From Chitinophagales bacterium (GTDB lineage Bacteria; Bacteroidota; Bacteroidia; Chitinophagales; JADIYW01), in the NCBI GenBank assembly GCA_023957235.1, contig JAMLHI010000006.1:77525-141524 (forward strand): a DNA stretch of 64,000 bases, in the 5' to 3' direction. Shown here in pieces: positions 2,884 to 60,135 of this stretch. How positions within the stretch are numbered: the stretch's first letter is position 1; each line of letters starts with the position of its first letter. Position numbers and translations under genes: made by a program. The notes under the pieces are model-generated. The model saw nothing but the letters and a program-made list of their open reading frames with translations. It was not told the DNA's origin and searched no databases.

Positions 2884-4617
2884 CTAATCTTTTACACAAC
2901 GACAAGAAAGACCGACTGCTCTTGATTGAAAAAGCTCGGTTAATTTACTGTTATTATAAGCTAATCCATAATAAAAGGCATCTGTATTTGCTGAAGATGG
3001 AGTTGGTGTAGAACTCCACCAATAACCAATTTCACCAAAAGAATAGAATGATGGATAAGTTCTAATGGATCTCCATCCTCCGGGCAATCCGGTAAATCCA
3101 CTCTCATTAGTGGCGTTGGTCTTTGGAGTTTTCCAATCATCCGTTGTAGATTTCATCTTATCTCCCGCATAGCCTTCTCCACCTAAATAATTGCGCAAGG
3201 TAAGCCATTCTATATTTGTGGGAATATGCCATCCATTCGGACACAAATTACCTGTATTCACCGCAAACCAATTATATAGTTTGCCATAAGGCTGGTTATA
3301 TGCCGAGTTATTTTCATAATAAGCCCAAGCAGGAGTGTTTTGTTTACTTAAGAAGATAGCTCTCCAATCGTCATCATTTGTTACTTCAGCAATATTTCCC
3401 TCATATCTCAAGTTCTCGGCAAACCATGTCTGATTTCCTATTGTTACGACTTTATATTGCTCTCCATCTCTCGTATCAATAAAAATACCTGATTCAGGGT
3501 CGTTTGTATCTTCTTCTTCATCTGCCCATTCATAATATATTTTCAGACCGGCAATTTCCAGCATCTTTTCATCTGCATGATACACATAAGTATATTGAGC
3601 GGTAGAATCCACATCTTTATATACTGCATCAGTAATAATATAATCGGATGCTTGCTTCCCATCAACGAATTTTTTACCTTGTATATGCTTTGAAGATATC
3701 AGTTGATTTCCTTGTTCGGGAATACTATATGCATCCGTCAGACCAAAAGATATGATCCAATCCGCAAAACTATATTTGTATTTCGCCACCTTTTGTGCAT
3801 GTTTAATATCGCCTCTTGTGAAATTAGATTCAGGCAATAAGTCATATTCTTGTTGGAAATAATAATCTTCAAAACTAATCGGACTCAATCCCAAAACAGC
3901 TTGATTGATTTTGCGGATTAAATCTTTAGGAACACCGTCAGCTTTTTGGTAAGATACCTGTATTTCAAATTCCTGTCCTATCTTTGGCGAGCTTTGTATT
4001 CCGTTTAAATAATTTTCGATTTTATAATTTTTTACAAGTCCATTATCATAATTTTCTACTTGTATCTCTCCACCTCTAACACCTAACATTAAATCACTAC
4101 GGGTAATTTTTGTAAGGTTTCCAGTAGAATTATATGTATAGTTGATATTTCTTGAATACTGAGGCCCATTACCAAGACTAACTTGAAAAATATTAGAGCC
4201 ACTGACTATTTTTTCATTTTCTACATTTAATGTAATATTCATCAAACTCAATAGACTAATATTAGCAAAGTCGGCACTGACATCAAAATCATATTTTTCA
4301 TTATCGGATGAGCTATTATAGTAAGTATTAGAAGAATATCCACGCCATACGTTGACTCCTTGTAATGCACCATCAGAATAGTGATAGTCCACACTCATAA
4401 GTTCATCCGTATCAAAAGGGAATGAATTAGGACTTTCAGTCTGCTCTACCCTTACAATTCTGACCTTTCTATCATCATTGGATGTAGGGTTGTCATTGCC
4501 GGAGTCCGTAGATCCCGGATTTTCTGTTGTAGGAGGTTGTGGAGTAGTTGGTGGGAGCAAATCTTTTTTACATGCTATTATTCCCAACAACAGTGTGAAA
4601 TAAATTAACTTCTTCAT
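2884..4617 (-). CDS. Lipoprotein with C-terminal FISUMP (Fibrobacter succinogenes major paralogous, TIGR02145-like) domain and a long N-terminal extension
   Basis: Lipobox LLLGIIAC. C-terminal motifs GKLYNWFAV, CPNGWHIPT, NESGFTGLPGGWR, GYWWSST, ending CRCVKD; a paralogue lies at 60474-61208. Confidence 0.8.
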   Translation of the reverse strand: MKKLIYFTLLLGIIACKKDLLPPTTPQPPTTENPGSTDSGNDNPTSNDDRKVRIVRVEQTESPNSFPFDTDELMSVDYHYSDGALQGVNVWRGYSSNTYYNSSSDNEKYDFDVSADFANISLLSLMNITLNVENEKIVSGSNIFQVSLGNGPQYSRNINYTYNSTGNLTKITRSDLMLGVRGGEIQVENYDNGLVKNYKIENYLNGIQSSPKIGQEFEIQVSYQKADGVPKDLIRKINQAVLGLSPISFEDYYFQQEYDLLPESNFTRGDIKHAQKVAKYKYSFADWIISFGLTDAYSIPEQGNQLISSKHIQGKKFVDGKQASDYIITDAVYKDVDSTAQYTYVYHADEKMLEIAGLKIYYEWADEEEDTNDPESGIFIDTRDGEQYKVVTIGNQTWFAENLRYEGNIAEVTNDDDWRAIFLSKQNTPAWAYYENNSAYNQPYGKLYNWFAVNTGNLCPNGWHIPTNIEWLTLRNYLGGEGYAGDKMKSTTDDWKTPKTNATNESGFTGLPGGWRSIRTYPSFYSFGEIGYWWSSTPTPSSANTDAFYYGLAYNNSKLTELFQSRAVGLSCRCVKD

Positions 4618-6255: not shown

Positions 6256-9200
6256 ATGAAAAAGCTAAGCATTACTTTACTATTTTTTCTTTTTTCTCTG
6301 CTGTTTGTCTATGCACAACTGCCCAAAAAACTAAGTTACCAAGCTATTATAAGAGATAATAATGGTCAAGTTATTTCTAACCATTCTATAGGTTTGAAGG
6401 TTGAAATATCCAATGGATTTGTTGTTTATTCCATACCAGTTCTAAGTGGATTGCAGACGAATAGTGTGGGACTTTTGAGTACTGATTTAGATTTGAGTAA
6501 TCAAAATATAGATTGGAGTCAAGGCCCTTTTACTATGAAAGTGCTAGTAAGTACGCAAGATGATGGAAATTATGATTTGATAACAGAGAAAGAAATTTCA
6601 AGTGTCCCTTATGCATTATTTGCTTTAGATGGAAATGTTGGTCCAAAAGGAGAAAAGGGTGACAAAGGTGATGCTGGGACTGGTATCACAGTCAAAGGTT
6701 CGCTTACAAGCCCAAATGATTTACCTGCAAGTGGAAATGATGGTGATGCCTATTTGATAGACGGTTCACTATATGTATGGACTGGCAACGGATGGGAAAA
6801 TGTAGGAAATATTCAAGGTCCCAAAGGCGATAAAGGAGATACTGGAGCTACTGGTTCACAAGGTATCCAAGGTGAAAAAGGAGAACAAGGTATAGCAGGA
6901 CAGCAAGGTCCAAAAGGCGATAAGGGTGATGCTGGAACTACTGGACCACAAGGTATTCAAGGTGAAAAGGGAGAACAAGGTATAGCAGGATTACAAGGTC
7001 CGAAAGGAGATAAAGGAGAAGCAGGTACAGGAGTAACTATCAAAGGTTCGCTTACAAGTCCAAATGATTTACCTGCAAGTGGAAATGATGGTGATGCCTA
7101 TTTGATAGACGGTTCTCTTTATGTATGGACTGGCAACGGATGGGAAAATGTAGGAAATATTCAAGGTCCAAAAGGCGATGCTGGAGCTACTGGCCCACAA
7201 GGTATTCAAGGTGAAAAAGGAGAACAAGGCATAGCAGGACAGCAAGGTCCAAAAGGTGATAAAGGAGATGCTGGAGCTACTGGCCCACAAGGTATTCAAG
7301 GTGAAAAGGGAGAACAAGGTATAGCAGGATTACAAGGTCCAAAAGGAGATAAAGGAGATGCTGGAGCTACTGGTCCACAAGGTATCCAAGGAGAAAAAGG
7401 AGAACAAGGCATAGCAGGACAGCAAGGTCCAAAAGGCGATAAGGGTGATGCTGGAGCTACTGGACCACAAGGTATTCAGGGTGAAAAAGGAGAGCAAGGT
7501 ATAGCTGGGCTACAAGGTCCAAAAGGAGATAAGGGTGATGCTGGAGCTACTGGACCACAAGGTATTCAGGGTGAAAAAGGAGAGCATGGTATAGCTGGGC
7601 TACAAGGTCCAAAAGGCGATGCTGGAGCTACTGGCCCACAAGGTATTCAAGGTGAAAAAGGAGAACAAGGTATAGCAGGATTACAAGGTCCAAAAGGCGA
7701 TAAAGGTGATGTTGGTGCAACAGGTATTCAAGGTATTCAAGGTGAAAAGGGAGAACAAGGTATAGCAGGGCTACAAGGTCCAAAAGGCGATAAAGGTGAT
7801 GTCGGTGCAACAGGTCCACAAGGTGTTCAAGGAGAAAAAGGAGAACAAGGTATAGCAGGACAGCAAGGTTCAAAAGGAGATAAAGGTGATGCTGGAGCTA
7901 CTGGTCCACAAGGTATTCAAGGTGAAAAAGGCGAACAAGGTATAGCTGGACTACAAGGTCCAAAAGGTGAAAAAGGTGATGCTGGAGCTACTGGACCACA
8001 AGGTATTCAAGGTGAAAAAGGAGAGCAAGGTATAGCTGGGCTACAAGGTCCAAAAGGAGATAAAGGGGACAAAGGAGATCCAGGGTCATATATTGCAGGG
8101 ACTGGAATTACAATCTCTGCTGGAGGTAATACCATTTCTGCCAATAATACTTTACCTATTTGGAATGCCAATCAACTACAATCCACAGGTGTTTCAAGTA
8201 CAGTTCCTACGATTGGTCAAGTGTTAGAATATAACGGTCAACAATGGGAGCCAGCTGATAAAGAGAATTTTTCAAGTTTTTTTAAATCTGATAATAATCA
8301 AATTACTTATAACGATTCTGCAGATTATGGTAAGAGTTTTCTAGTGAATACTTCATCTATCAACTATGCTGGAGGAAATAGCCAACAAGCTGAATATAAA
8401 TTGATGTTTTTACCTAGCAAAAAGGGTGCTTTTAGAGCAGGTTCAGTAGGATATACAGATTGGGATGAAAATAATATTGGAGAAGGTAGCATTGCTTTAG
8501 GAAAATCTTCTACTGCAAGTGGAGAAAATGCAGTTGCTATTGGTAGCTTTAATTTAGCTTCTGGTATTAATGCAGTTGCAATTGGAACATCAAGTCAAGC
8601 AACAAATATTTATGCGATGGCATTAGGTTTTAATAGTACTGCTTCAGGAGATAATTCCAAATCAATGGGATATGGATCTACTGCCTCTGGTAGTAATTCT
8701 TTAGCAACTGGATATATTTCAAATGCTTTAGGTAATAATTCTACCGCAATGGGGTCTTTTACTACCGCATCGGGCATTAGCTCTACTTCTTTGGGCACTA
8801 GCACATTGGCTGCAGGAGAAAATTCAATAGCTATGGGAAGAAATGCCACAACAGAAGTAAATAACTCTCTTGTTTATGGGTCTTATATTACTTTAGATAA
8901 AAATTCTCAAGGAAGTGTCATTTTAGCTGATGCTTCACGTAGCAGCAGTAATACAAAAATCTTTACAAGTACTCCTAATGTTTTTTACGGATTGTTTGCA
9001 GGAGGCTATCGCTTTTATACTGATGCTAATGGAACAGTTGGATTAGGTGTAGCTCCTGGTGGCAATAGTTGGGTAACTATTTCTGATAGTACCAAAAAGG
9101 AAAACTTCCAGCCATCTTCAGATATTTTAAGTAAAATTTCTAAAATGAAATTAGGTTCATGGAATTATAAAGGTCAGGATAAAAATGCTTTCAGGCACTA

Positions 9201-38611: not shown

Positions 38612-40837
38612 ATGCTAAGGTGGGAGGAAATGCGTAAATGGTGGTGCGGCTTTTGGATATATTTGAGTCTATCCATTGTTGCCAATGCTCAGACTACCGT
38701 GGGCTTCCATGAGATTGATTATATTCCTGTCAAACAAGATGGAGTTTACTTAAAATATCCTTGGGCAGGAGGCTTGAACAGTGCTCAATTTTGTGATTTG
38801 GATTTGAATGGTGACGGGCTTAGAGATTTGATGGTGTATGAAAAGACAGATAATAGTATTCTAACTTTTATTGCTATTGATAAAGCACAATATGTATTAG
38901 ATAGAAGATTTATTAAGAATATACCACAGATACAAGGTTGGGTGGTCAATAAAGATATGAATTGTGATGGAATTGATGATTTGTTAACCTATAATGACGG
39001 TTCAATTGCTGTTTATCGTGGATATATGGAAAGTGATACATTAAAATTTGAATTGTGGGTAAGTGAAATATTATATCAAAGTAGTTCTGGAAGTATCAAT
39101 CTCTATGGAACTTTTGTGGATAGACCTGCTGTAGCAGATTTTGATTATGATGGAGATATGGATATCCTGACTTTCAACGTCAGTGCCAATCGTATTTTAC
39201 TATATAAAAATAGGAGAGTAGAGAATGGACTTGATTGTGATAGTCTATCTTTTACTTTGAATGATAATTGTTGGGGCAATGTGTATGAGTCAGGTTTTAG
39301 TGCAATTGTTGATATGAAGGATACTTGCTTATATAAGATTTCTGGAGGAAAGTTTGCTGATGTAAACAATAATGAGGCGACAAGAATGCGTCATGCAGGT
39401 TCAACGTTAGAAGCTTTTGATATCAGAGGTAGAGGAGTGTTGGATGTGTTGATGGGTGATGTATCTTATAATTTCATCAATCATCTTAGAAATGATGGAG
39501 ATAGGAAATATGCCTCAATACTAGCTCAGGATACTTTATTTCCCTCGTATAACACTTCAGTAGATGTGGCTTCATTTCCATTATCTACATTTATAGACAT
39601 TGATCATGATGGGAAAAAAGACTTGATTGTGACACCTTTTGAAGGTTTGGGTGTAGATAATTATCAGAATGTATTATTCTATAAAAATATAGGAAATGAT
39701 TCAGTCCATTTATCTTTTATGACCCGTTCGTTTCTTGTTGGTGATATGTTGGATGTCGGAGAAAATGCCGCACCAGCAATCATTGATATAGATGGTGATG
39801 GATTGAAAGATATGATAATAGGAGGAGGCTATCGTCGCAATGGAAAAATGAATTATCATTTACATTATTTTAAAAATATAGGTTCATTGACTTACCCAGT
39901 ATTTCGATTAGAAGAAGATGATTTTTTAAATTTCAACTCTTATGGATGGGCAGATCCTGTTCCAGCAGTTGGAGATTTAGATGGAGATGGTAAGGATGAT
40001 TTATTGCTTGGACTATATGACGGAAGGATTTTGTTTTATAGAAATATTTCTGAGAATGATGGATTTAAAGCAAGTCAGCCTGAGTTTTTAAAACTAGGCG
40101 CTTCCAATCTAGATATAGGTCAAAATGCTGCTCCTTGTGTTTTTGATATAGATAGAGATGGTAAAGCAGAACTGTTTGTTGGAGAATTTAATGGCAATAT
40201 TAATCTTTATAAAAATATAGAAACAAATGGAAAAGTACAGTTAGAACTCATCACTGATTCTGTAGGGAAAATTAGAACAACAACAGATGTCTTACCTTTT
40301 GGGTATAGCAGTATTGCTGTTGGTGATTTTTATCATGATGGAAAATTTGATCTTTTCGTAGGTTCATATCTTCATTTAAGATTTGTTGACAATATTGAGG
40401 ATAGTCTATTTCAACCCGTACAGATGCAAGACCTGTCTTTTAATTTGGGAAGGAGAGTTGTTCCAACATTTGATGACTTTATGGATAGCGGTGATAGAAC
40501 ATTGCTATTAGGAATTCAATCTGGAGGTGTAAGATGGTTTAGTCAGAATCCCCCTGAATATCAACCAGTAGGATGGAAAGAAATGGAGTCTTTATCAGTA
40601 AAATTTGAGATTTTTCCCAATCCAAGTAATGGAGAATTTCAGGTCAAATTATTTTCTCAGCTAGAACATGTAAGCTGGGTAGTGTATAATATGATGGGGA
40701 CGGCATGCCAATCAGGCAAATTAAATGGACAAATTGAAAAAATTTCTTTATCTTATCTTCCTAATGGAGTATATGTATTCCAACTCATGAAAGAAGGGCG
40801 ATTTTTTGGAAGTCAATTATTCGTTAAATCTCGGTAA
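38612..40837 (+). CDS. FG-GAP/VCBS repeat beta-propeller protein with T9SS type-A CTD
   Basis: At least eight D-x-(D/N)-x-D-G-x-x-D-(L/I) repeats (DLNGDGLRDLMVY, DIDGDGLKDMIIG, DLDGDGKDDLLLG and others). C-terminal FPNPSNGEFQVKL...LPNGVYVFQL tail. An alternative ATG lies at 38630. Confidence 0.85.
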   Translation: MLRWEEMRKWWCGFWIYLSLSIVANAQTTVGFHEIDYIPVKQDGVYLKYPWAGGLNSAQFCDLDLNGDGLRDLMVYEKTDNSILTFIAIDKAQYVLDRRFIKNIPQIQGWVVNKDMNCDGIDDLLTYNDGSIAVYRGYMESDTLKFELWVSEILYQSSSGSINLYGTFVDRPAVADFDYDGDMDILTFNVSANRILLYKNRRVENGLDCDSLSFTLNDNCWGNVYESGFSAIVDMKDTCLYKISGGKFADVNNNEATRMRHAGSTLEAFDIRGRGVLDVLMGDVSYNFINHLRNDGDRKYASILAQDTLFPSYNTSVDVASFPLSTFIDIDHDGKKDLIVTPFEGLGVDNYQNVLFYKNIGNDSVHLSFMTRSFLVGDMLDVGENAAPAIIDIDGDGLKDMIIGGGYRRNGKMNYHLHYFKNIGSLTYPVFRLEEDDFLNFNSYGWADPVPAVGDLDGDGKDDLLLGLYDGRILFYRNISENDGFKASQPEFLKLGASNLDIGQNAAPCVFDIDRDGKAELFVGEFNGNINLYKNIETNGKVQLELITDSVGKIRTTTDVLPFGYSSIAVGDFYHDGKFDLFVGSYLHLRFVDNIEDSLFQPVQMQDLSFNLGRRVVPTFDDFMDSGDRTLLLGIQSGGVRWFSQNPPEYQPVGWKEMESLSVKFEIFPNPSNGEFQVKLFSQLEHVSWVVYNMMGTACQSGKLNGQIEKISLSYLPNGVYVFQLMKEGRFFGSQLFVKSR

Positions 40838-40838
40838 G

Positions 40839-41495
40839 ATGTCAAATAATATAGCTATAGTTGCGGGAGGTACTGGTTTAGTAGGTCAGTATGTTTTGGA
40901 GTATCTATTAGAAGATGATGATTTTGAAAAAGTGTATATTCTCAATAGGCGCTCTGTAGGATATATACATCATAAAGCAAAAGAAATTATTGTAGATTTT
41001 GAAAATTTAAGTGACAGTGTCAATGATATTCGACCTACGCATGCATACTGTTGTCTAGGGACAACGATTAAAAAGGCGGGTAGCAAAGAAGCGTTTAAGA
41101 AAGTAGATTATTATTATGCGTTAGAATTTGCTGAAGTGGTTCATCGTTTGGGTTGTGAAAACTTTAGTGTGGTTACTGCCTTGGGTACTAATCATCCGTC
41201 CTCTATTTTTTACAATCAAGTCAAATATGAACTCACCCAATCATTAATAAGAGAAAGATTTCAAATTTTAAATATCATTCAACCTTCCTTATTGATAGGA
41301 GATAGAGGCGAGATTCGTATTGGTGAAAAAATAGGGCAAAAAGTTTTTGAATGGACAAATTCATTATGGATAGGACCTTTTAAGAAATATGCAGGTATTG
41401 AAGGTCGGCAAGTGGCGAAAGCAATGGTTGCTATTTCTAAAAAGCAGCAACATGGTATTTTTAAATATCCATCAGACCAGTTACAGAAATTTTAA
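40839..41495 (+). CDS. NAD(P)H-binding (atypical SDR/NmrA-like) protein
   Basis: Rossmann motif IAIVAGGTGLVGQYV directly after the ATG at 40839. The track start 40806 is a TTG overlapping the previous gene. Confidence 0.75.
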   Translation: MSNNIAIVAGGTGLVGQYVLEYLLEDDDFEKVYILNRRSVGYIHHKAKEIIVDFENLSDSVNDIRPTHAYCCLGTTIKKAGSKEAFKKVDYYYALEFAEVVHRLGCENFSVVTALGTNHPSSIFYNQVKYELTQSLIRERFQILNIIQPSLLIGDRGEIRIGEKIGQKVFEWTNSLWIGPFKKYAGIEGRQVAKAMVAISKKQQHGIFKYPSDQLQKF

Positions 41496-41759
41496 AATTT
41501 ATTTTAAAAATGAGAATGGAGAATATTTCGAAGCGGATTCTTTCGGATTTTTAGTAAAAGGAATTTCAGGTTCGATGATTTCTGCTAATAATTCTAATAG
41601 TTTTTCTTCAAATAGGATTTTAAAATAATCAGGAAGATAGTTGCCTTCATTGAGATATTTTATTCCTTTGTTTAGTTCTCTGATCGCGTAAAACCCAATA
41701 ACTGTGTTTTCTTTTTCAAATAAATAATTATAGAATAGTCCTTGGAAAGTTTGAGTAGA
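41482..41759. repeat. Direct repeat copy A (278 bp) of the nuclease-gene 3' end
   Basis: Aligns to 43542-43819 at a constant offset of 2,060 bp. There are 7 substitutions plus a 1-nt indel at the left edge. Confidence 0.95.
41499..41759 (-). pseudogene. Orphan 3' fragment (~86 codons) of the PD-(D/E)XK nuclease gene
   Basis: The minus-strand frame stays open and reads ...STQTFQGLFYNYLFEKENTVIGFYAIRELNKG...ESASKYSPFSFLK(stop), matching the C-terminus of the 926-aa protein. There is no start codon, and a TGA lies shortly upstream. Confidence 0.85.
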
Positions 41760-41884
41760 GTTTATTATTCTTTTCTTGCCAACACATATTCAATATCTAT
41801 TTCTTATAAAACGAAATAAGGATAAAAGTGTTTGGATGAGTATGAATTAGTCGTATTGAAAACTTTTCATCCATTTTCAGACAC

Positions 41885-43093
41885 CTATACTTCACCTAAC
41901 TCTCGATAGGGGATTAGTTTTATCTTTTTACCTTTTATGTTGTATTCGTCAGTTTGATTAAAAGTGATGATTTTCCCTTCTTGAACATCAAAGAAGTTCA
42001 TAGCTTCTTCTAAACCTTCAATTTCTCTTTTAAGATTATCTTCATTGATATGGTAACAAACCTGTACTAATTCATCTAACTTATCTTTATTAAATACTAC
42101 AAAATCACATTCCTTTTTTTCATTAAAGTAATAAAGTTGTCGCCCTTTTCTTCTATAATGTAGGAAGACTAAGTTTTCTAATCTTCGACCCCAGTCATCA
42201 GTAAAAACTACAGAATTATGTGTGAAAACACCCAAATCTATGGCATATACTTTCTTTGGATTTCTTATCTGTGTCTTGAGTGAATAACTAAATTTGGGTA
42301 TAAACTGTACTAAATAAGCATCTTCCATATAGGCGAAATATTCTAATATGGTACTGGTGGCTTTTATTTCTAAATTTTTGGATAGCTTACTTGCTGATAT
42401 GGGTTTGCCAATATTTGAAAGTAAATAAACAGCTAAACGTCTTAAAGATTGAGCATCTCTCACACCATATCTGACAGCTATATCTCTTAATAATATATCG
42501 TCTAGAAGTTGTTGTAAAACAAGTGGTATCTTAGTCTTGATGTAGTCCGGGAACCCACCATCTTTAAGGTATTCGGAAAGCTTTTCAAGTGACTCTTCGA
42601 CTTCTCTGAGTTGTAAATATTCAGAATATGAAAATGGAAAAAGTTCGTAAGACAAATGTCTTCCAGTTAATTTAGTACCTAACTCTTTACTCAATAAGGA
42701 AGCATTAGAACCTGTGACTACAATATTGTATCCTTCATCTAATTTCTGTCTGACATAGACTTCCCATTTGTTTAGCATTTGCACTTCATCTAGAAAAAGA
42801 TTTTTGATAGCTCGTTTTTCTAATTCTTTATCTAGTCGCCTGAAATCATCTATTTCAAAACCTGTCAATCTAGGGTCTTCAAAATTTAAAAAGATGGATT
42901 TCCCCACAACTGTCGGTAACAATTGCCTTAATAAAGTACTTTTACCACATCTTCTAACTCCTGTTATGATAGTTGCAAAACCTTGATGAAGCTTTATCTC
43001 TTCTAGCTTATTTCGCAACACTCCTTGGTCTCTTTCTATCCAAACAGTATTTTGATTATCTATGATATCTGCTATGATTTCTTGTGATATCAT
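41885..43093 (-). CDS. AAA-type ATPase with C-terminal DUF4143-like domain
   Basis: Walker A GVRRCGKSTLL and Walker B LFLDEVQ, with length and C-terminal pattern typical of AAA_14/DUF4143 proteins. The track start 43141 is TTG; ATGs lie at 43120 and 43093. Confidence 0.8.
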   Translation of the reverse strand: MISQEIIADIIDNQNTVWIERDQGVLRNKLEEIKLHQGFATIITGVRRCGKSTLLRQLLPTVVGKSIFLNFEDPRLTGFEIDDFRRLDKELEKRAIKNLFLDEVQMLNKWEVYVRQKLDEGYNIVVTGSNASLLSKELGTKLTGRHLSYELFPFSYSEYLQLREVEESLEKLSEYLKDGGFPDYIKTKIPLVLQQLLDDILLRDIAVRYGVRDAQSLRRLAVYLLSNIGKPISASKLSKNLEIKATSTILEYFAYMEDAYLVQFIPKFSYSLKTQIRNPKKVYAIDLGVFTHNSVVFTDDWGRRLENLVFLHYRRKGRQLYYFNEKKECDFVVFNKDKLDELVQVCYHINEDNLKREIEGLEEAMNFFDVQEGKIITFNQTDEYNIKGKKIKLIPYRELGEV

Positions 43094-43459
43094 TCCACTT
43101 TTTATAACAAATATAATCATTTGTTCGATACTGTAAAACAATATTGTTCGACTTTATCAAATAATATTGTTTGGTACTATCAAATGAAGTTGATAAGAGT
43201 GAATTGCTATTTCAAAATCTCCATCTTTTCCAAAACAATCAAGGCAGCTTTTCTATTGGAACCCCAATGAAATTCATCATGTTCACTAGTGGCTCTTACT
43301 GCACGATGATAGGGTATGATTAATTATGTTGTTATTGGATATGATATATTTTATTTATAATAGCACTATAATTCCCTTTATTTATTTGTTTTATGGCTTT
43401 AGTAGTAGCTATGCAAATTGAACTTAGAATAGGGTTTTTTATCCACAAGTTTATAGATG

Positions 43460-43502
43460 AAAAAAAGTAGTTGATGGAGAGATTTTTAACCAAATCATCA
43501 AC
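43460..43502 (-). terminator. Candidate terminator downstream of the nuclease gene
   Basis: Stem gttgatg / catcaac (43470-43476 / 43496-43502). The plus-strand A-run 43460-43466 gives a T-run after the stem on the minus strand. The loop is about 19 nt. Confidence 0.45.
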
Positions 43503-43541
43503 AAAGTAGTTACAGTAGAAACATAACCAACTACTAAAATG

Positions 43542-43819
43542 ACAGAAAATTTTAAAATTTATTTTAAAAAAGAAAATGGAGAATATTTCGAAGCTGATTC
43601 TTTCGGATTTTTAGTAAAAGGAATTTCAGGGTCGATGATTTCTGCTAATAATTCTAATAGTTTTTCTTCAAATAGGATTTTAAAATTTTCAGGAAGATAG
43701 TTGCCTTCATTGAGATATTTTATTCCTTTGTTTAGTTCTCTGATTGCGTAAAACCCAATAACTGTGTTTTCTTTTTCAAATAAATAATTATAGAATAGTC
43801 CTTGGAAAGTTTGAGTAGA
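43542..43819. repeat. Direct repeat copy B (part of the intact nuclease gene)
   Basis: See copy A (41482-41759). Confidence 0.95.
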
Positions 43820-46339
43820 TAGCTTATCCTGATTTCGTACAAACAATTGAGGAATCTTGTCTAAATTTTCTGATAAATTTATTTTCCCCGTTTTATAGTC
43901 CAATATTCTGTATCCTTTGTAAGTAATATCTACCCGATCGAGTTTGCCTTGAAGCTCAATATTGATACCGTTTGCTAAGGTTATGTTTTTGGAATATTTC
44001 TTTTCTAAACTTTCTATTTGAAAAGGTTCTTCTTTAGCGAGTTGTTTGTCAATTTGTAAAATATCTTTCATCACTTTTTGGATGACATCGAATGCTAACA
44101 AGTTTTTTCCTTTTAGGTTGTCAAAGGACTGGTATTCAGTGTGAAATGCTTGTTTTAGAATGCTGTCTAATTGTTTTTCGGCATTTTCTATCATTTCTGT
44201 GCTGATAGTTTGATGGATGAATGGTTGATAGATTAATTCTATAGCTTTGTGTAAAACATTACCAAAATCTGCTGCATTCAGTATTTCTTCAGTAATATCT
44301 TCTTCATAAATATTAGCAATATATTTAAGATAAAACTGAACAGGACATTTTAAATATAAGGTGAGTGCACTGGAAGAAAAGGCTTTCTTTTTTAAAATTT
44401 CAATATGAGCTTTTGTCTTTGGAATGATGAGATTTTCATTGATTAGTGCTTGATTCTTTTTAGGATATGACCAGTTATTTTGAATGATTTGATTAGTAGG
44501 AGTATTCAATTCTAATAGAACCTGTGAAAGAAATCTGCTCTTTTCAAATGGCATATCTCCTGATGTATTATTGTAAATAAAATGAGCTTCTTTAGTTCTC
44601 TTTAGAAGTCTAAAAAAGTGATATGCATACACACTATCATATTCTTTCAGTGTGGGTAATCCAAAAGGTACTCTTAGGCTATATGGAATATATGAGTTTC
44701 CTCGCTTGGATTTGGGTAAAATATCTTCATTTGCACCAGTAATGATGACTCTGTCAAAATCTAGTAAGCGTGTTTCCAAAAAACCCATGATTTGTATCGG
44801 TTTGGATTTTTCTGATATAAAAGGCACTTGAATAGTTCGTATATGGGTCAACAATAATTGATATATGGCTTTGAAAGAGATTTGATTTTCGTAGTTTTTT
44901 AATTGAACTTTTTTATTTTGAATGGCTGCCTCATAATAGTTCAAGATTATTTTCAGTTGACTATTCTCTTCTTGAATATGTTGAGTCAGTAATCTAAGTT
45001 GTTCTATCCAATATTGGCATAATATTTCTAAAGATTGGATATTTTTCTCCTTTTCTAAGAGGAGTTTCGGTATGTAAAGAGATAATATTTTGTGACTAAA
45101 ATAAAATGAATTGCTTTTTAGTATTACATTATTGAGTATATCAGCATCTTTTGCAGGATGAATCAGACGGAAAAAATAATGCTGGTACAACCGCTCAATG
45201 TCAGCCTTATGAATGCTTTCAGACAGATGAATTTTAAATAATATTTCCAACCAATCTGTCACCGAAGAATAACCTACAGGCAGACTCATCGTGATATTGA
45301 CTTTGTCATGTTGGCTGATTTCAAACAAGAGAGACTCTAAAGTGTTTTCATCAGAAAGGATGACTGCTGTGGAAAGAGCTTGACTTTGTTGATGATGAAC
45401 AATTTCTGAAACAATTTTATTTTGACCTTGAATCATTGGAGCACCATGAAAGAAATATTTTCTATTATTTTTTAATATATCATGCTGATTCCAAAAATGT
45501 TGTATTCCACTAAAACTAGTTTTGTATTTTCTTAAAAAATTTCCAGCTTCATGTTCTGGGTTATCCATGAAATAATCATCTACATCCCAATACATTGAAA
45601 TATTAACTGAGCTGGCAATTTTCTTTATTAATTTCTCATCAATTTCAGTAAACGCATTGAATCCAATAAAATGAATATTAGAGAAGGGTAGAGAAATAGA
45701 TTCGTCTTTTTTGATTTTATCATAGTATGCTCTATAAGCCATTCCTTCATAAGCCATGTTGTATTGGGAGAGATGCTCCTTGAACAGATGATATACTTTG
45801 CCGATTGTCTCCCAGGTGTTGACAAATTCTTTTTCAAATTCCTTTTCACTATCTGCCAATTTTAAAAAATGGCTTAATATTTCTTTTAACTCATTTTCAA
45901 TAGAAAATTGTGCATCTATTTTCTTCTCGTCTTGGATGATATTAAATAATCTATTGGCATCAACATAATATTTATCAATTTCATCAAAGTCACTGAGCAT
46001 CATTTTTCCCCACATTGCAAATTCTTCAAACTCCAGTTCTTCTTTCCACTGTGTTTTATAAACTTGAAAAAGTTCTAATAATAAAATGTCTTTATCTGGA
46101 ATAATATAATTACTCAACTGCACCCAAAAATTATTAATAGTTTGGATTTTCGGTAGTATAAATGTTGTACATCCCTTCGAAATAAGAATGTTTTTAAGAT
46201 GCTCTTTGAATAAAGAACAAGACCTCAGTGAAGGCAATATGATAGCTATGTTGATCATAGTGCCTTCATGGTTATTTGTGATATTTTCCGCTGCCCATTT
46301 TAGAAACGGAATATTTTGCTCCTCAGATTGTGAAATCAT
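43559..46339 (-). CDS. PD-(D/E)XK nuclease superfamily protein (AddB/RecB-nuclease-like, inactivated-helicase-like N-terminus)
   Basis: C-terminal nuclease motifs DFGNVLHKAIE ... GKLDRVD ... ILDYKTGK, 926 aa. No partner helicase gene in the window. Confidence 0.7.
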   Translation of the reverse strand: MISQSEEQNIPFLKWAAENITNNHEGTMINIAIILPSLRSCSLFKEHLKNILISKGCTTFILPKIQTINNFWVQLSNYIIPDKDILLLELFQVYKTQWKEELEFEEFAMWGKMMLSDFDEIDKYYVDANRLFNIIQDEKKIDAQFSIENELKEILSHFLKLADSEKEFEKEFVNTWETIGKVYHLFKEHLSQYNMAYEGMAYRAYYDKIKKDESISLPFSNIHFIGFNAFTEIDEKLIKKIASSVNISMYWDVDDYFMDNPEHEAGNFLRKYKTSFSGIQHFWNQHDILKNNRKYFFHGAPMIQGQNKIVSEIVHHQQSQALSTAVILSDENTLESLLFEISQHDKVNITMSLPVGYSSVTDWLEILFKIHLSESIHKADIERLYQHYFFRLIHPAKDADILNNVILKSNSFYFSHKILSLYIPKLLLEKEKNIQSLEILCQYWIEQLRLLTQHIQEENSQLKIILNYYEAAIQNKKVQLKNYENQISFKAIYQLLLTHIRTIQVPFISEKSKPIQIMGFLETRLLDFDRVIITGANEDILPKSKRGNSYIPYSLRVPFGLPTLKEYDSVYAYHFFRLLKRTKEAHFIYNNTSGDMPFEKSRFLSQVLLELNTPTNQIIQNNWSYPKKNQALINENLIIPKTKAHIEILKKKAFSSSALTLYLKCPVQFYLKYIANIYEEDITEEILNAADFGNVLHKAIELIYQPFIHQTISTEMIENAEKQLDSILKQAFHTEYQSFDNLKGKNLLAFDVIQKVMKDILQIDKQLAKEEPFQIESLEKKYSKNITLANGINIELQGKLDRVDITYKGYRILDYKTGKINLSENLDKIPQLFVRNQDKLSTQTFQGLFYNYLFEKENTVIGFYAIRELNKGIKYLNEGNYLPENFKILFEEKLLELLAEIIDPEIPFTKNPKESASKYSPFSFLK

Positions 46340-50724: not shown

Positions 50725-52716
50725 CTACCAAATAATGACTCTGTCCTCTTCAGATACAGTAGGAGCGCATTTAAAGGCATCATAAAACTCTTTTAAGTTA
50801 GATAAGGTGACATTAATACGTGCTTTTGCTGGTGAATGTGGATCTACAGCTATCAATTGTTTTAAGGCTTCTGTAGTGGCATTGCTTCTCCATATTTTTG
50901 CCCATCCATAAAAAAATCTTTGTTTATAATCCATTCCATTGACCAACGGTGGTTCTGGTTTGTTTGAATATTCTTTAAGAAGTGCATAATAACCTAAAAT
51001 TACACCTCCTTGGTCAGCAATATTTTCACCAAGTGTAAATGCTCCATTGACTTTAACATCTGGTAAAATCTCGAAATTGTCATATTCTTTAACCAGTTTC
51101 TGTGTAAGTTTATCAAACTTCGCTCTATCTTCTTCTGTCCACCAATTATTTAAATTTCCTTCAGCATCAAATTGTGAACCTTGATCATCAAATCCATGTG
51201 AAAATTCATGACCAATTACAGCTCCAATACCTCCATAATTGACTGCATCGTCTATGTTAGCGTCGTAAAATGGAGCCTGTAAAATGCCCGCAGGAAAAAC
51301 AATCTCATTGAAAAGAGGATTGTAATAGGCATTGACTTCGTGAGCATTCATTTCAAATTTATCTTTATCAGTCTCTTTTCCATATTCTTTAAGATTCTTT
51401 TTTATCATAAAACTTTGAATTTTTATAACATTTTCAAAAGCTTTATCTTCTTGGATATCAATGCTTGAAAAGTCTGTCCATTTTTTGGGATATCCAATTT
51501 TATAGGTGAAAGTACTTAGTTTTTTAAGTGCTGCCTTTTTTGTTTCATCAGACATCCATTCTAAATTGTTAATTCTGTCAGCATAAACTAAACGCATATT
51601 TTCAATCATGTGCTCAATTTTTGCTTTAGATTCTGAAGAAAAATATTTGCTGACAAATAAGCGTCCAAGCGGTTCGCCAAAAATTTGATTCATTCTTCTG
51701 ATAGTCTTTTCATTGAGTGGAAGTTGCTCTTTGACCCCATTAATTGTTGTTGAGAAGAAATCAAAATTAGCTTGTTCAAAAGTTTCTGGTAAATAAGATG
51801 CCATACTCATAGTTAGATGGTACTTTAAATATTCTTTCCAACTTTCCAATGAATGATTTTTAATAATTTTTGAATATTTACCTAAGATTTCTGGGTTGAT
51901 AACAATGATTTCATGAGGCTGGATATTGAGTGCTTTGAAATAGTTGTCCCAATTAATAGTAGGAGAGGCTTTTTTCATATCAGCATAAGAATATTTATTA
52001 TATATCTTCATTGGATTTCTCATTTCTTCCTTGCTGAGATGATATTGAGCGATATCGTTTTCGATAGCAAATATCTGAGAAGCAATTTTTTCTGCTTTAG
52101 ATGCTTTTTTTCCTAATAATAATTCAATTTTTAATAGGTATTTTTTGAATGCTTCTCTAATTTTTTGCTTGTCTTCATCATTAGAAAGATAAAAGTCTTT
52201 ATCTCCTAAAGACAAGCCTGATTGTGATATATAAAATGTATTGTATTTTGAATTCATCATATCTGCTTCTACTCCTCCCTCAATAGGCAGTGTCAAACCT
52301 GGAATGATAGCATTTAATACGATGAGGTCATTAAATGAAGCTGCATTATCAATGAGTTTAAAATAGTTTTTTAATGGTGTTATACCTCTTTTATTTCTGA
52401 TTTCACTATTGCTTAAAGAATTGTATAAATCCTTAATTTGTTGCTGATAGGAATTTTTAGGAAATGAGGTCTTCAATAAATCGTTGACTATCCCTTCCAT
52501 TTTTTTGTCATTATCTTTTGCTAGGATATTAAACGAACCCCATCTGCTCTCAGTAGAGGGTACAGGGTTTTGAGCTTTCCAATCAGCATTGATATAGTGG
52601 TCAAAATCGTGACAGGCAGTTGAAGAAGGTTGTGCACGTAAAGGAGCACTCAACATCATTGAAAGGCAAAAAAGTCCTATTGAAGTTTTCATGTTAAAGA
52701 GATAGTTTTTATTCAT
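50725..52716 (-). CDS. M13 (neprilysin/PepO-like) zinc metallopeptidase
   Basis: VIGHEFSHGFD (HExxH) and GENIADQGG (third zinc ligand). Signal peptide. An alternative ATG lies at 52692. Confidence 0.9.
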   Translation of the reverse strand: MNKNYLFNMKTSIGLFCLSMMLSAPLRAQPSSTACHDFDHYINADWKAQNPVPSTESRWGSFNILAKDNDKKMEGIVNDLLKTSFPKNSYQQQIKDLYNSLSNSEIRNKRGITPLKNYFKLIDNAASFNDLIVLNAIIPGLTLPIEGGVEADMMNSKYNTFYISQSGLSLGDKDFYLSNDEDKQKIREAFKKYLLKIELLLGKKASKAEKIASQIFAIENDIAQYHLSKEEMRNPMKIYNKYSYADMKKASPTINWDNYFKALNIQPHEIIVINPEILGKYSKIIKNHSLESWKEYLKYHLTMSMASYLPETFEQANFDFFSTTINGVKEQLPLNEKTIRRMNQIFGEPLGRLFVSKYFSSESKAKIEHMIENMRLVYADRINNLEWMSDETKKAALKKLSTFTYKIGYPKKWTDFSSIDIQEDKAFENVIKIQSFMIKKNLKEYGKETDKDKFEMNAHEVNAYYNPLFNEIVFPAGILQAPFYDANIDDAVNYGGIGAVIGHEFSHGFDDQGSQFDAEGNLNNWWTEEDRAKFDKLTQKLVKEYDNFEILPDVKVNGAFTLGENIADQGGVILGYYALLKEYSNKPEPPLVNGMDYKQRFFYGWAKIWRSNATTEALKQLIAVDPHSPAKARINVTLSNLKEFYDAFKCAPTVSEEDRVIIW

Positions 52717-53506: not shown

Positions 53507-54433
53507 ATGTTGGGAATAAAGGAAAATCTTCGTCAGTGGGCTTTGGAGTTGGGCTTTCAAGATGTAGGCTTCGCTCAGGCAGGATTTCTTAGCGAAGAAG
53601 CACCACTGCTAGAAAATTGGTTAAAGCAAGGGTATCACGGCCAAATGAAATACATGGAAAATTGGTTTGATAAAAGATTAGACCCTCGGTTATTAGTAGA
53701 TGGTGCTAAAACAGTTATGGTGATGACTTATAATTATCATCAGGAAGAAAAACAAAGATGCTCTAATGCTCCAAAAATATCTCAATATGCTTATAGTTTA
53801 GATTATCACGATGTTATAAGAGATAAGTTAAATTTATTGTTGAATAATGCTAGAGAAAAATATGGAGATTTTCAGGCACGTGGTTTTGTGGATTCAGCCC
53901 CTGTTCTAGAAAATGCTTGGGCAAAAAGAGCTGGAATAGGATGGATTGGAAAACACACATTGATTATTAACAAAAGGAAGGGGTCCTTCTTTTTTTTGGC
54001 TTCTATTGTGATGGATTTGAAAGTTGAAGAAGATCCACCTTTTAAAACTGATCATTGCGGTACTTGTACGAGATGTATTGATTTTTGTCCAACAGAAGCA
54101 ATTCTTGCTCCTGGGCTCTTGGATGCCAGTAAATGTATTTCATATCTGACGATTGAATTGAAAGATGCAATTCCAGATTCTTTCAAAGGTAAAACTGATG
54201 GCTGGGTATTCGGATGCGATATATGCCAAGAAGTTTGTCCATGGAATCGATTTAGTATAACCAATCACGAGCCTGCTTTCAAGCCTTCTGAAGAGTTTTT
54301 AAATATGACTCAAAGAGATTGGGAAGAGATGACTCAGGAGACTTTTAGTCGTGTTTTTCGCAAATCAGCAGTAAAAAGAACAAAATATGCTGGTCTAATG
54401 AGAAATATAAAATTTCTTAAGGAGAATGATTAA
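53507..54433 (+). CDS. queG: Epoxyqueuosine reductase QueG
   Basis: 4Fe-4S motifs CGTCTRCIDFCPT and CDICQEVCPWN, CISYLTIE, N-terminal DUF1730-like region. Confidence 0.9.
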   Translation: MLGIKENLRQWALELGFQDVGFAQAGFLSEEAPLLENWLKQGYHGQMKYMENWFDKRLDPRLLVDGAKTVMVMTYNYHQEEKQRCSNAPKISQYAYSLDYHDVIRDKLNLLLNNAREKYGDFQARGFVDSAPVLENAWAKRAGIGWIGKHTLIINKRKGSFFFLASIVMDLKVEEDPPFKTDHCGTCTRCIDFCPTEAILAPGLLDASKCISYLTIELKDAIPDSFKGKTDGWVFGCDICQEVCPWNRFSITNHEPAFKPSEEFLNMTQRDWEEMTQETFSRVFRKSAVKRTKYAGLMRNIKFLKEND

Positions 54434-59850: not shown

Positions 59851-59900
59851 CATCGAGCAGTTCGATAAACTCACTGTAGCACCTGTCGAAGCGAAAGAAT

Positions 59901-60135
59901 CTCATTTCTAGACTGTATTCTATATAGATGCTTACAGCATGACATCCTACTGCTGTCATTCTGCGGTCGCTGAGTTTGTCACCCTGTAAGGGTCTCATTC
60001 CTAAACTGTATTCTATATAGATGCTTACAGCATGACATCCTACTGCTGTCATTCTGCAGTCGCTGAGTTTGTCACCCTGTAAGGGTCTCATTCCTAAACT
60101 GTATTCTATATAGATGCTTACAACATGACATTTTA
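59901..60135. repeat. 93-bp tandem repeat, about 2.5 copies
   Basis: Copies start at 59901, 59994 and 60087. Copies 1 and 2 differ at 3 of 93 positions, and copy 3 diverges after ~45 nt. Confidence 0.9.

Follow-up and report, generated by a model that had tools for sequence, protein, structure and literature searches.

A 1.78-kb insertion carrying a candidate defence gene and flanked by a long duplication of its target in a Chitinophagales genome

Prophage e14 of Escherichia coli integrates at the 3' end of the icd gene and carries a replacement 3' end. Homology-facilitated illegitimate recombination and microhomology-mediated template switching can join foreign DNA at short microhomologies without any dedicated enzyme. 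A third pattern, insertion with long target duplication (ILTD), was named by Kobayashi's group for restriction-modification genes (PMC2853133; Nobusato et al. 2000). In the parts of PMC2853133 quoted here, ILTD repeats range from 46 to 423 bp and sometimes overlap gene 3' ends, the insertions lack mobility genes, and cases occur in several phyla; Figure 1b of the same paper depicts islands entering the 3' end of a protein or tRNA gene. The mechanism of ILTD is unsettled; Furuta et al. (2010) proposed that the cargo itself causes double-strand breakage (PMC2853133, as quoted). Here, we describe a locus of a Chitinophagales bacterium (GCA_023957235.1, contig JAMLHI010000006.1, positions 77,525 to 141,524), in which 1.78 kb of foreign DNA carrying an ATPase gene of the candidate defence family PDC-S01 lies between two convergent genes and is flanked by a 278-bp duplication of their junction. 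The whole 64-kb stretch analysed is called the window below, and coordinates refer to it unless another locus is named.

The duplication consists of two direct repeats, 41483-41759 (copy A) and 43542-43819 (copy B), that align over 278 columns with 97.1% identity at an offset of 2060 (self-BLAST of the window, E 4e-132). The pair was recovered in three ways, by a repeat search (41487-41759 versus 43547-43819, 97%), by MAFFT alignment and by self-BLAST, which gave the longest extent. It is the sole dispersed repeat of such size in the window. A first-pass annotation, made from the sequence alone, had described two segments 2,060 bp apart that differ by 7 substitutions and a 1-nt indel, and all three methods reproduce them. 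The base differences are T/A, G/A, G/T, T/G, AA/TT and C/T, and the indel falls in an ACAGAAA(A) stretch at the epimerase-side edge. The two flanking genes and the repeat copies are:

40839..41495, + strand: NAD(P)-binding epimerase-like gene, 218 aa, left flank of the target (open reading frame with a weak Pfam Epimerase/NAD_binding_10 match; the same 218-aa gene is found in two related genomes, L002 and L003)
41483..41759, no strand: repeat copy A, the native junction still joined to the epimerase gene (repeat search, alignment, self-BLAST)
41499-41759, - strand: orphan 86-codon nuclease 3' fragment within copy A (codon comparison)
43542..43819, no strand: repeat copy B, the functional 3' end of the nuclease gene (repeat search, alignment)
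43559..46339, - strand: PD-(D/E)XK nuclease family gene, AddB-like, 926 aa, right flank of the target (open reading frame; PDDEXK_1 match, 3e-24; orthologues)

Copy B comprises the final 87 codons (stop counted) of the 926-aa PDDEXK_1 gene together with the terminal 13 nt of the epimerase gene, which here have an additional A. In copy A, the epimerase stop codon (TAA, 41493-41495) is followed by AAT and then by the stop codon of the orphan frame (41499-41501), leaving 3 nt between the two stops, and the orphan frame remains open over 86 codons. The duplicated 278 bp are made of 13 nt of the epimerase end, the 3-nt spacer and 262 nt of the nuclease end. The open reading frames and the alignment agree with the earlier description of copy B as the true nuclease 3' end, of copy A as an orphan abutting the epimerase stop, of the 3-nt gap and of a repeat that takes in the end of the neighbouring gene (13 nt, given before as about 12). 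Because 278 bp of the target are duplicated, both flanking genes keep complete reading frames. An A+T-only near-palindrome, TTTTAAAATTTATTTTAAAA, extends across both convergent stops (41490-41509) at the edge of the duplicated segment, where L003 has a 68-nt spacer instead; it may be a fragile or break-prone point.

The nuclease protein has one match of the 100% class (L002) and one at 71% identity (L003), both in metagenome-assembled genomes of Chitinophagales; a scan of genome contigs with the same protein returned only an unrelated Clostridia match. In L003, the nuclease and epimerase genes stand tail to tail, 68 nt apart, and there is no ATPase gene. Gene order is conserved around the site: LemA and TPM genes lie to one side, FG-GAP, phosphodiesterase and M16 peptidase genes lie to the other, and the flanks are 76-77% identical to those of the window across 4.4 kb and 7.7 kb. 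The repeat matches the one nuclease 3' end of L003 (10536-10793; tblastx, 58% amino acid identity, E 1e-30), and both copies match it in a five-way alignment. Therefore, the repeat is the duplicated target and L003 carries the empty site, although this comparator is distant (76% nucleotide identity) and exact repeat boundaries cannot be checked against it. The earlier claim that foreign DNA had entered and duplicated a native gene junction thus stands, and the empty site that was to be looked for in relatives is the one of L003.

L002 (GCA_026931855.1) is a separate assembly, colinear with the window over 18.8 kb with 37 single-nucleotide polymorphisms (SNPs; 99.8% identity). It carries the same insert and both repeat copies, and the extent of the insert is identical in both strains. 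The window lies within a 235-kb contig, and both sources are short-read metagenome assemblies, in which a repeat may be mis-joined. Furthermore, because the copies are identical over their last 74 nt in the window and their last 186 nt in L002, the path through them partly rests on the assembler's repeat resolution. However, the two assemblies, which derive from separate runs, show the same structure to the base and yet are set apart by SNPs; seven substitutions tell the copies apart, and each copy has unique sequence next to it on one side. In two sequencing runs, Logan contigs also end exactly where a true two-copy repeat predicts: one stops at 41759, the last base of copy A, another spans 41730-43516 in the insert, and a third ends at 41565, inside the sole 35-nt stretch common to the copies in that part of the repeat. 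These breaks are those of a true two-copy repeat in a k-mer graph. An assembly artefact is extremely improbable, and the structure is confirmed as an insertion of foreign DNA with duplication of the native junction. The k-mer graph is the same for repeat-insert-repeat and for an empty chromosome accompanied by a circle (insert plus one repeat copy), and for this reason the contigs fit the integrated form and the chromosome with a circle alike. The Logan contig that holds the insert (L092, corresponding to 41730-43516) stops 26 nt short of copy B and far ahead of the first k-mer in common with copy A; this early stop may reflect a strain variant, a drop in coverage or an alternative junction.

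The insert itself (41760-43541, 1782 nt) contains a single intact gene, which encodes an AAA_14/DUF4143 ATPase. When Pfam was run on all insert open reading frames of at least 50 aa, only AAA_14 and DUF4143 came out above threshold. Its parts are:

41760..41884, - strand: 3' tail of the insert, 125 nt, downstream of the ATPase stop (no similarity to other ATPase loci; no significant fold, z 0.07)
41885..43120, - strand: AAA_14 plus DUF4143 ATPase gene, 411 aa, intact, PDC-S01 candidate-defence family (Pfam, PADLOC)
43121..43200, - strand: operator/promoter-like palindromic repeats of the GTATCGAACAA / TTGTTTGATA type, directly upstream of the ATPase gene (inverted repeat; fold z -4.3)
43207..43323, - strand: MGMT/alkyltransferase-like gene remnant, 38 codons and a stop, LIIPYHRAV..., LIIPYHRAVRATSEHDEFHWGSNRKAALIVLEKMEILK (translation; Pfam PF01035)
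43324..43541, no strand: insert DNA of unassignable origin, about 220 nt (no Pfam match, no Rfam match)

The MGMT-like remnant aligns with positions 49-80 of the 81 positions of DNA_binding_1 (PF01035) at 20.7 bits, below the cut-off of 27 (E 3.9e-4). Its frame is broken upstream, and a tyrosine stands at the position of the active-site cysteine (PYHR). We read this stretch as a probable leftover of a neighbouring gene from the donor DNA. Both strains have the remnant, as does the Logan contig L092. Just past the nuclease stop, a weak A+U-rich hairpin followed by a U-run (43459-43502, - strand; fold z -1.9) could terminate the nuclease transcript. A terminator scan of the locus called none, and an Rfam scan of 40500-44500 returned two sub-threshold chance matches only. 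Hence, the terminator that the first-pass annotation saw as now serving the nuclease gene comes down to this weak hairpin and U-run. The ATPase gene and the palindromic upstream region listed in the same inventory are there, but they and a terminator are not all that the insert holds, since about 340 nt are other DNA, including the MGMT-like remnant.

Pfam and inspection of the neighbouring genes found neither an integrase nor a transposase, whether in the insert or in the roughly 8 kb that flank it on each side; the lack of both in the insert had been noticed from the sequence. Insertion at this locus used no element-encoded recombinase that can be found there. A site-specific integrative element with att sites was rejected on the lack of any integrase or recombinase in 41760-43541 or in the flanking 8 kb, and a tRNA-targeting island on the lack of any tRNA in the window. 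A DNA transposon or insertion sequence was discarded as well: there is no transposase, the repeat search found no inverted repeat pairing the insert ends, and the duplication is 278 bp long where a short one (<15 bp) would be expected. For a diversity-generating retroelement, no reverse transcriptase lies nearby, and the differences between the copies are not adenine-specific. The insert resembles a stretch taken from another chromosome more than it does a defined element. Its ends are unconserved, only an operator-like stretch of about 60 nt recurs elsewhere, and the MGMT-like fragment lies at its far end; these traits point to a random chromosomal fragment and to no dedicated element.

The insert could also be what remains of an integrative island, that is, of an integrase-bearing element that entered the nuclease 3' end with a replacement end and was later reduced to the ATPase gene and debris. 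The pseudogene debris and the approximately 220 nt of unassignable DNA would fit this history, and the length of the repeat and the geometry of a replacement 3' end resemble elements of the e14/icd type. Besides, the nuclease flank holds other cargo in other lineages. In more distant nuclease orthologues, the downstream neighbour is an EamA gene, and the flank is empty in L095 (7817-7985) and L097. It is occupied in L094 (7783-9444) by a different PDC-S01-type ATPase gene, 31% identical to that of the window and in opposite orientation, and in L096 (6891-7757) by a Gp49/HTH toxin-antitoxin pair. With two flanks filled and two empty, small accessory cargo has entered the nuclease 3' flank repeatedly. 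However, neither filled flank shows a target duplication or an integrase, no trace of an integrase or of any element gene occurs in the insert or in about 8 kb around it, and the insert is just 1.78 kb long with the same extent in both strains. A decayed island is therefore quite improbable. An 84-nt repeat in L094 was considered as a target duplication and rejected as a REP-like element.

The cargo gene belongs to a widespread family. Its product matches AAA_14 (3e-33, 114.8 bits, cut-off 27) and DUF4143 (2e-19, 70.7 bits, cut-off 28.1) as well as the PADLOC models of PDC-S01 (E 1.5e-109; PDLC04787, 364.6 bits over 372 residues). PMC3424549 places DUF4143 among the PD-(D/E)XK families, and the architecture described for PDC-S01 is an ATPase with a PD-(D/E)XK-superfamily domain (PMC12988326, PMC13356809). 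PDC-S01 reportedly ranks fourth in frequency among defence candidates in prokaryotes and, like most candidates of its class, awaits experimental validation (PMC12988326). We regard the gene as a candidate anti-phage gene whose product is a predicted ATPase-nuclease of the PDC-S01 type. The family is very large, with thousands of homologues in Bacteroidota: 7932 of 8000 scored candidates have E-values below 1e-30. Among these 8000 candidates, the closest homologue outside the species is 74% identical. The ATPase of the window keeps all residues that are invariant across the family alignment. Its structure model is of moderate quality (pLDDT 69), with a confident alpha-beta-beta-beta-alpha-beta unit at residues 310-404; a PDB sequence search and a Foldseek search with this model gave only generic weak AAA+ matches and none for the C-terminal domain, and thus no solved relative. 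The invariant residues of the C-terminal unit are E337, D339, Q353 and C355 (E-C-D-F ... V-Q-V-C-Y, residues 337-355, window approximately 42056-42112, - strand). In our motif assignment, Q-V-C would occupy the position expected for the canonical (D/E)-x-K, and likewise in the distant homologues of L094 and L065.

Plasmid and phage collections contained only distant homologues of the ATPase, at most 46% identical. The 'phage' records concerned are unannotated short scaffolds, and the one that was examined (L093) looked like a bacterial fragment. We found no published account of how PDC-S01 genes move between genomes. Across about 90 compared loci with ATPase homologues, BLAST showed that only some 60 nt of the upstream region, next to the ATPase start codon, recur. 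The motif involved, of the GTATCAAACAA / TTGTTTGATA type, is k-mer enriched and was seen in L004, L006, L013, L031 and L039; it looks like an autoregulatory operator. More distant ATPase subfamilies have a different upstream motif, of the ATTACTAAT type. No conserved insert ends were detected across the homologous loci beyond the operator-like stretch. Since this upstream motif alone recurs in other genomes, the ATPase gene moves with its own operator/promoter and with nothing else conserved.

How the insert arrived can be read from its joints. The locus is probably an ILTD with illegitimate joints, in which 1.78 kb of foreign chromosomal DNA was inserted at the convergent epimerase/nuclease junction. 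The foreign piece entered the 3-nt gap between the two genes, and its joints would have been made by illegitimate recombination, either through two microhomology-guided template switches or through the filling-in of a break with a wide stagger. The 7-nt match ACAGAAA lies precisely at one joint, with an offset of 1 nt, and fits microhomology template switching; at the epimerase-side edge of copy B, this stretch may alternatively be a microhomology at the illegitimate joint rather than part of the repeat. The ATPase gene would have been a passive passenger, retained as useful or addictive, and selection would have kept only those products that preserve both flanking genes. After insertion, the copies would diverge and exchange sequence. 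Repeat-insert-repeat could later loop out and re-enter by ordinary homologous recombination, an event that was not observed.

Exchange between the copies has left a trace in L002. Of the 37 SNPs that separate L002 from the window, three lie in copy B (43687, 43688 and 43745), and at each of them the L002 base is the copy-A base of both strains, whereas copy A of L002 is not reciprocally changed. This takeover alters two nuclease residues (E>D and N>Y) and makes one synonymous change. The simplest reading is that the live nuclease end was converted by the orphan copy A in the L002 lineage, which would be a case of gene conversion. A shift of the crossover point in a Campbell-type integration is unlikely as an explanation, because reciprocal swaps would be expected and were not seen. 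Elsewhere in the compared region, 25 of the 37 SNPs lie in two tracts, 51001-51586 (9 SNPs, in a Peptidase_M13 gene) and 53626-54232 (16 SNPs, in a QueG-like gene), and this clustering suggests recombination imports in the population.

The copies differ from each other by 2.5% and the two strains by 0.2%. Consequently, either the duplication is older than the strain split or the copies were diverged from the start. The latter would follow if DNA already carrying a diverged copy of the junction had been integrated by homology, the two copies then being alleles from two strains. Two versions can be conceived: a circle consisting of the insert plus a junction copy could integrate by a Campbell single crossover, or a linear fragment from another strain could be joined through a single homologous crossover within the nuclease gene together with a single illegitimate joint (homology-facilitated illegitimate recombination). 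Besides the gap between 2.5% and 0.2%, such an entry would account for the open orphan frame and for the share of synonymous changes. In the nuclease frame, codon comparison gives the same figures as before, with four of the seven substitutions synonymous (Ala, Ser, Phe and Ser codons), three nonsynonymous (D/E, Y/N and E/D) and an orphan frame open over about 86 codons. Moreover, the D-Y variant of the orphan functions or is tolerated in the live gene of L002, the SNP tracts at 51001-51586 and 53626-54232 would mean that the population imports DNA by recombination, and the k-mer graph is also compatible with a free circle.

However, the synonymous excess does not hold up statistically. If all changes were neutral, a synonymous share of about 0.24 would be expected, and four or more of seven would arise with P of about 0.06; if, as is more realistic, the orphan drifts while the live copy takes mainly synonymous changes, about 0.36 is expected and P is about 0.2, which is not significant. 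The proposal of two functional alleles, drawn earlier from the same four of seven changes, therefore gives way, as these changes are compatible with divergence in place under selection on copy B only. When the sites are polarised with L003, three of them speak for copy B as the ancestral state and the rest are ambiguous. With a P of about 0.2 and this ambiguity, in-place divergence and allelic import are inseparable on these data. Entry by homology also needs a prior joining of the ATPase gene to an intact junction, which only shifts the question of origin back, and the exchange in L002 is non-reciprocal, unlike what differing Campbell crossover points would give. Finally, neither a circle, nor a donor strain, nor an empty allele within the species was found in the assemblies and contigs searched. 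Entry by homology is thus rather unlikely. The first-pass annotation had matched the geometry to a Campbell-type integration; the geometry is indeed compatible with it, yet this is one of several routes, no circle was seen and the contigs cannot decide.

Other copies of the ATPase gene might be expected to show whether duplicated flanks accompany the family. We surveyed direct repeats within 600 nt on each side of a gene, using as control other genes of similar size at the same loci; this gene-based control replaced a first shifted-window control, and the repeats were then classified by kind. Flanking direct repeats occur at 10 of 51 homologous ATPase genes versus 5 of 123 other genes (p 0.002), and those of at least 80 nt at 7/51 versus 1/123 (p 0.0008). 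Many belong to other classes: those of L006, L039 and L031 are REP- or terminator-like, those of L062 and L079 are tandem-rich, and that of L034 contains the ATPase operator. In L034 (4812-4929 and 6237-6354), the flanking repeat includes an ATPase upstream region that matches L040, L069, L030 and L078. As the repeat holds this region, the downstream copy may be a remnant of a lost second tandem gene rather than a target duplication. Clean parallels to the window are L013 (368 nt, 91%, with a decayed T9SS C-terminal fragment) and L004 (105 nt, 81%). The look at the flanks of other DUF4143 ATPase genes, as proposed earlier, thus gives a raw excess of repeats but few clean parallels (2/51 versus 1/123, p 0.2).

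Similar repeats flank other genes. In L065, an Abi_2 abortive-infection gene (1844-2746, - strand), the single control gene with a long clean repeat, lies between 129-nt direct repeats that are 95% identical (1518-1646 and 3010-3138), and in L085 a DUF4062/HATPase_c_4/Fic-C gene is flanked by a perfect 44-nt repeat. These loci, like L013 and L004, are known without an empty-site comparator. The repeats of L065 (1-3140) start with a terminator hairpin, and upstream of the adjacent PDC-S01 ATPase gene there is part of a third copy (2-36), which gives the order repeat-ATPase-repeat-Abi-repeat. Since clean cases also flank Abi_2 and another defence-type gene, the long-repeat pattern is not specific to the ATPase; long flanking repeats look like a property of small defence cassettes in general. 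An apparent cassette array in L080 (3327-7558) was rejected, its repeats being the 3' ends of paralogous SLFN_AlbA_2/HATPase_c_4/HTH genes. The 34-73-nt repeat of L080 is present in 3-4 copies spaced by 1.3-2.9 kb, and the paralogous genes neighbour the ATPase gene and a HipA-like gene, with which they make up a small defence-type cluster.

These data also bear on whether the ATPase promotes its own insertion or homing, its PD-(D/E)XK-like domain making breaks and the long duplication being a signature of the family. The excess of flanking repeats at ATPase genes would favour this, as would the units between repeats, which consistently are the gene with short flanks only, and the occurrence in L094 of another, distantly related member of the family at this nuclease flank. 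Breaks made by the cargo were also proposed by Furuta et al. behind ILTD (PMC2853133, as quoted). However, most flanking repeats are REP-like, tandem or operator duplications, the clean cases are few and are shared with Abi_2 and another defence-type gene, and no end sequences are conserved. Furthermore, the closest relative at 74% identity gives no sign of recent copying, the nuclease activity is only predicted, and all aligned members appear to have Q-V-C at the expected catalytic lysine motif. Self-promoted insertion is accordingly very improbable. A broader proposal is that ILTD lets Bacteroidota defence cassettes of a single gene (PDC-S01, Abi_2 and others) spread with no recombinase of their own, maybe through breaks made by their own nucleases, and that the units then circle out and re-enter empty sites by host recombination; we hold it to be speculative and decidedly unlikely. 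If it were true, these cassettes would be mobile defence genes of a cryptic class, and orphaned gene ends would act as conversion donors for the host gene.

Several points weigh against an ILTD with illegitimate joints. The term ILTD names a pattern and not a mechanism, here as in the earlier cases. The ACAGAAA match is equally readable as part of the duplication followed by a 1-nt indel. The 2.5% divergence of the copies, set against 0.2% between the strains, fits an old insertion and equally the import of a diverged allele by homologous recombination. Once REP-like, tandem and operator cases are removed, clean two-copy, locus-unique repeats occur at 2/51 ATPase genes versus 1/123 others (p 0.2). 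A search of L004, L098 and 80 metagenome loci turned up no MGMT-like gene upstream of the ATPase, hence no donor context, and no empty-site allele within the species was found among the genomes searched.

The window contains two further repeat arrays away from this locus. A 93-nt tandem repeat (59900-60131, 2.5 copies, 97%) bears a GCTTACAGCATGAC...GTCATTCTGCAG inverted motif, and similar REP-like units are intergenic in L094 (7860-7943 and 10472-10555). Another tandem array (6640-8066), with a 90-nt period, about 10 copies and super-repeats of 339-441 nt, encodes Gly-X-Y collagen-like repeats.

The locus is a doubly assembled case of a PDC-S01 gene arriving without a mobility gene and with a long target duplication. 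It shows that genes only 3 nt apart can both survive an insertion between them, and it suggests that a leftover gene fragment can rewrite a live gene by conversion. The question of how ILTD arises dates from 2000, and this locus, with its two sequenced strains and public reads, offers a testable starting point.

Compared with known systems, the locus resembles e14-type elements in its diverged repeat of a gene 3' end, with a live gene that keeps a full end and an orphan copy that remains; unlike here, where 1.78 kb hold one gene and no recombinase, those elements come with a site-specific integrase gene and a short crossover core. Homology-facilitated illegitimate recombination and template switching can give a duplication-flanked insertion, and a 7-nt match is found at one joint; these mechanisms, however, were proposed from experiments in other organisms, whereas the present locus is known from its sequence. 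With the PDC-S01 candidate defence genes, the window ATPase shares the match to the models (E 1e-109) and the architecture of an ATPase with a PD-(D/E)XK-superfamily domain.

The likeness is closest to ILTD as described in the quoted parts of PMC2853133: a small defence-gene unit inserted relative to an empty site, direct repeats of a single target, and no transposase, integrase or inverted repeats. The flanking genes are adjacent in the empty-site comparator L003, and both repeats align to its one nuclease 3' end, albeit at 76% nucleotide identity. The repeat of 278 bp exceeds 30 bp, the insert of 1782 bp is well under 20 kb, and mobility genes are absent. Restriction-modification cargo, which appears in that source as a search filter of Furuta et al. 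rather than as a mechanistic requirement, is replaced here by a single PDC-S01 ATPase gene. The host also differs, Chitinophagales (Bacteroidota) being from a phylum that is not among the quoted ILTD examples, and here the duplication rescues two convergent genes 3 nt apart, with evidence of gene conversion between the copies. The first-pass annotation had alternatively invoked an unrecognised targeting mechanism for such ATPase genes, but the pattern is already described as ILTD, no defined ends exist and the fragment of a neighbouring gene argues against a dedicated element. Judged from its sequence, the locus belongs structurally to the described ILTD class, with a kind of cargo and a host phylum that are new to the examples quoted, and it broadens the pattern, known from restriction-modification systems, to a further defence family and a further phylum. 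As such it is a new and well-documented example of a known pattern and not a new kind of element.

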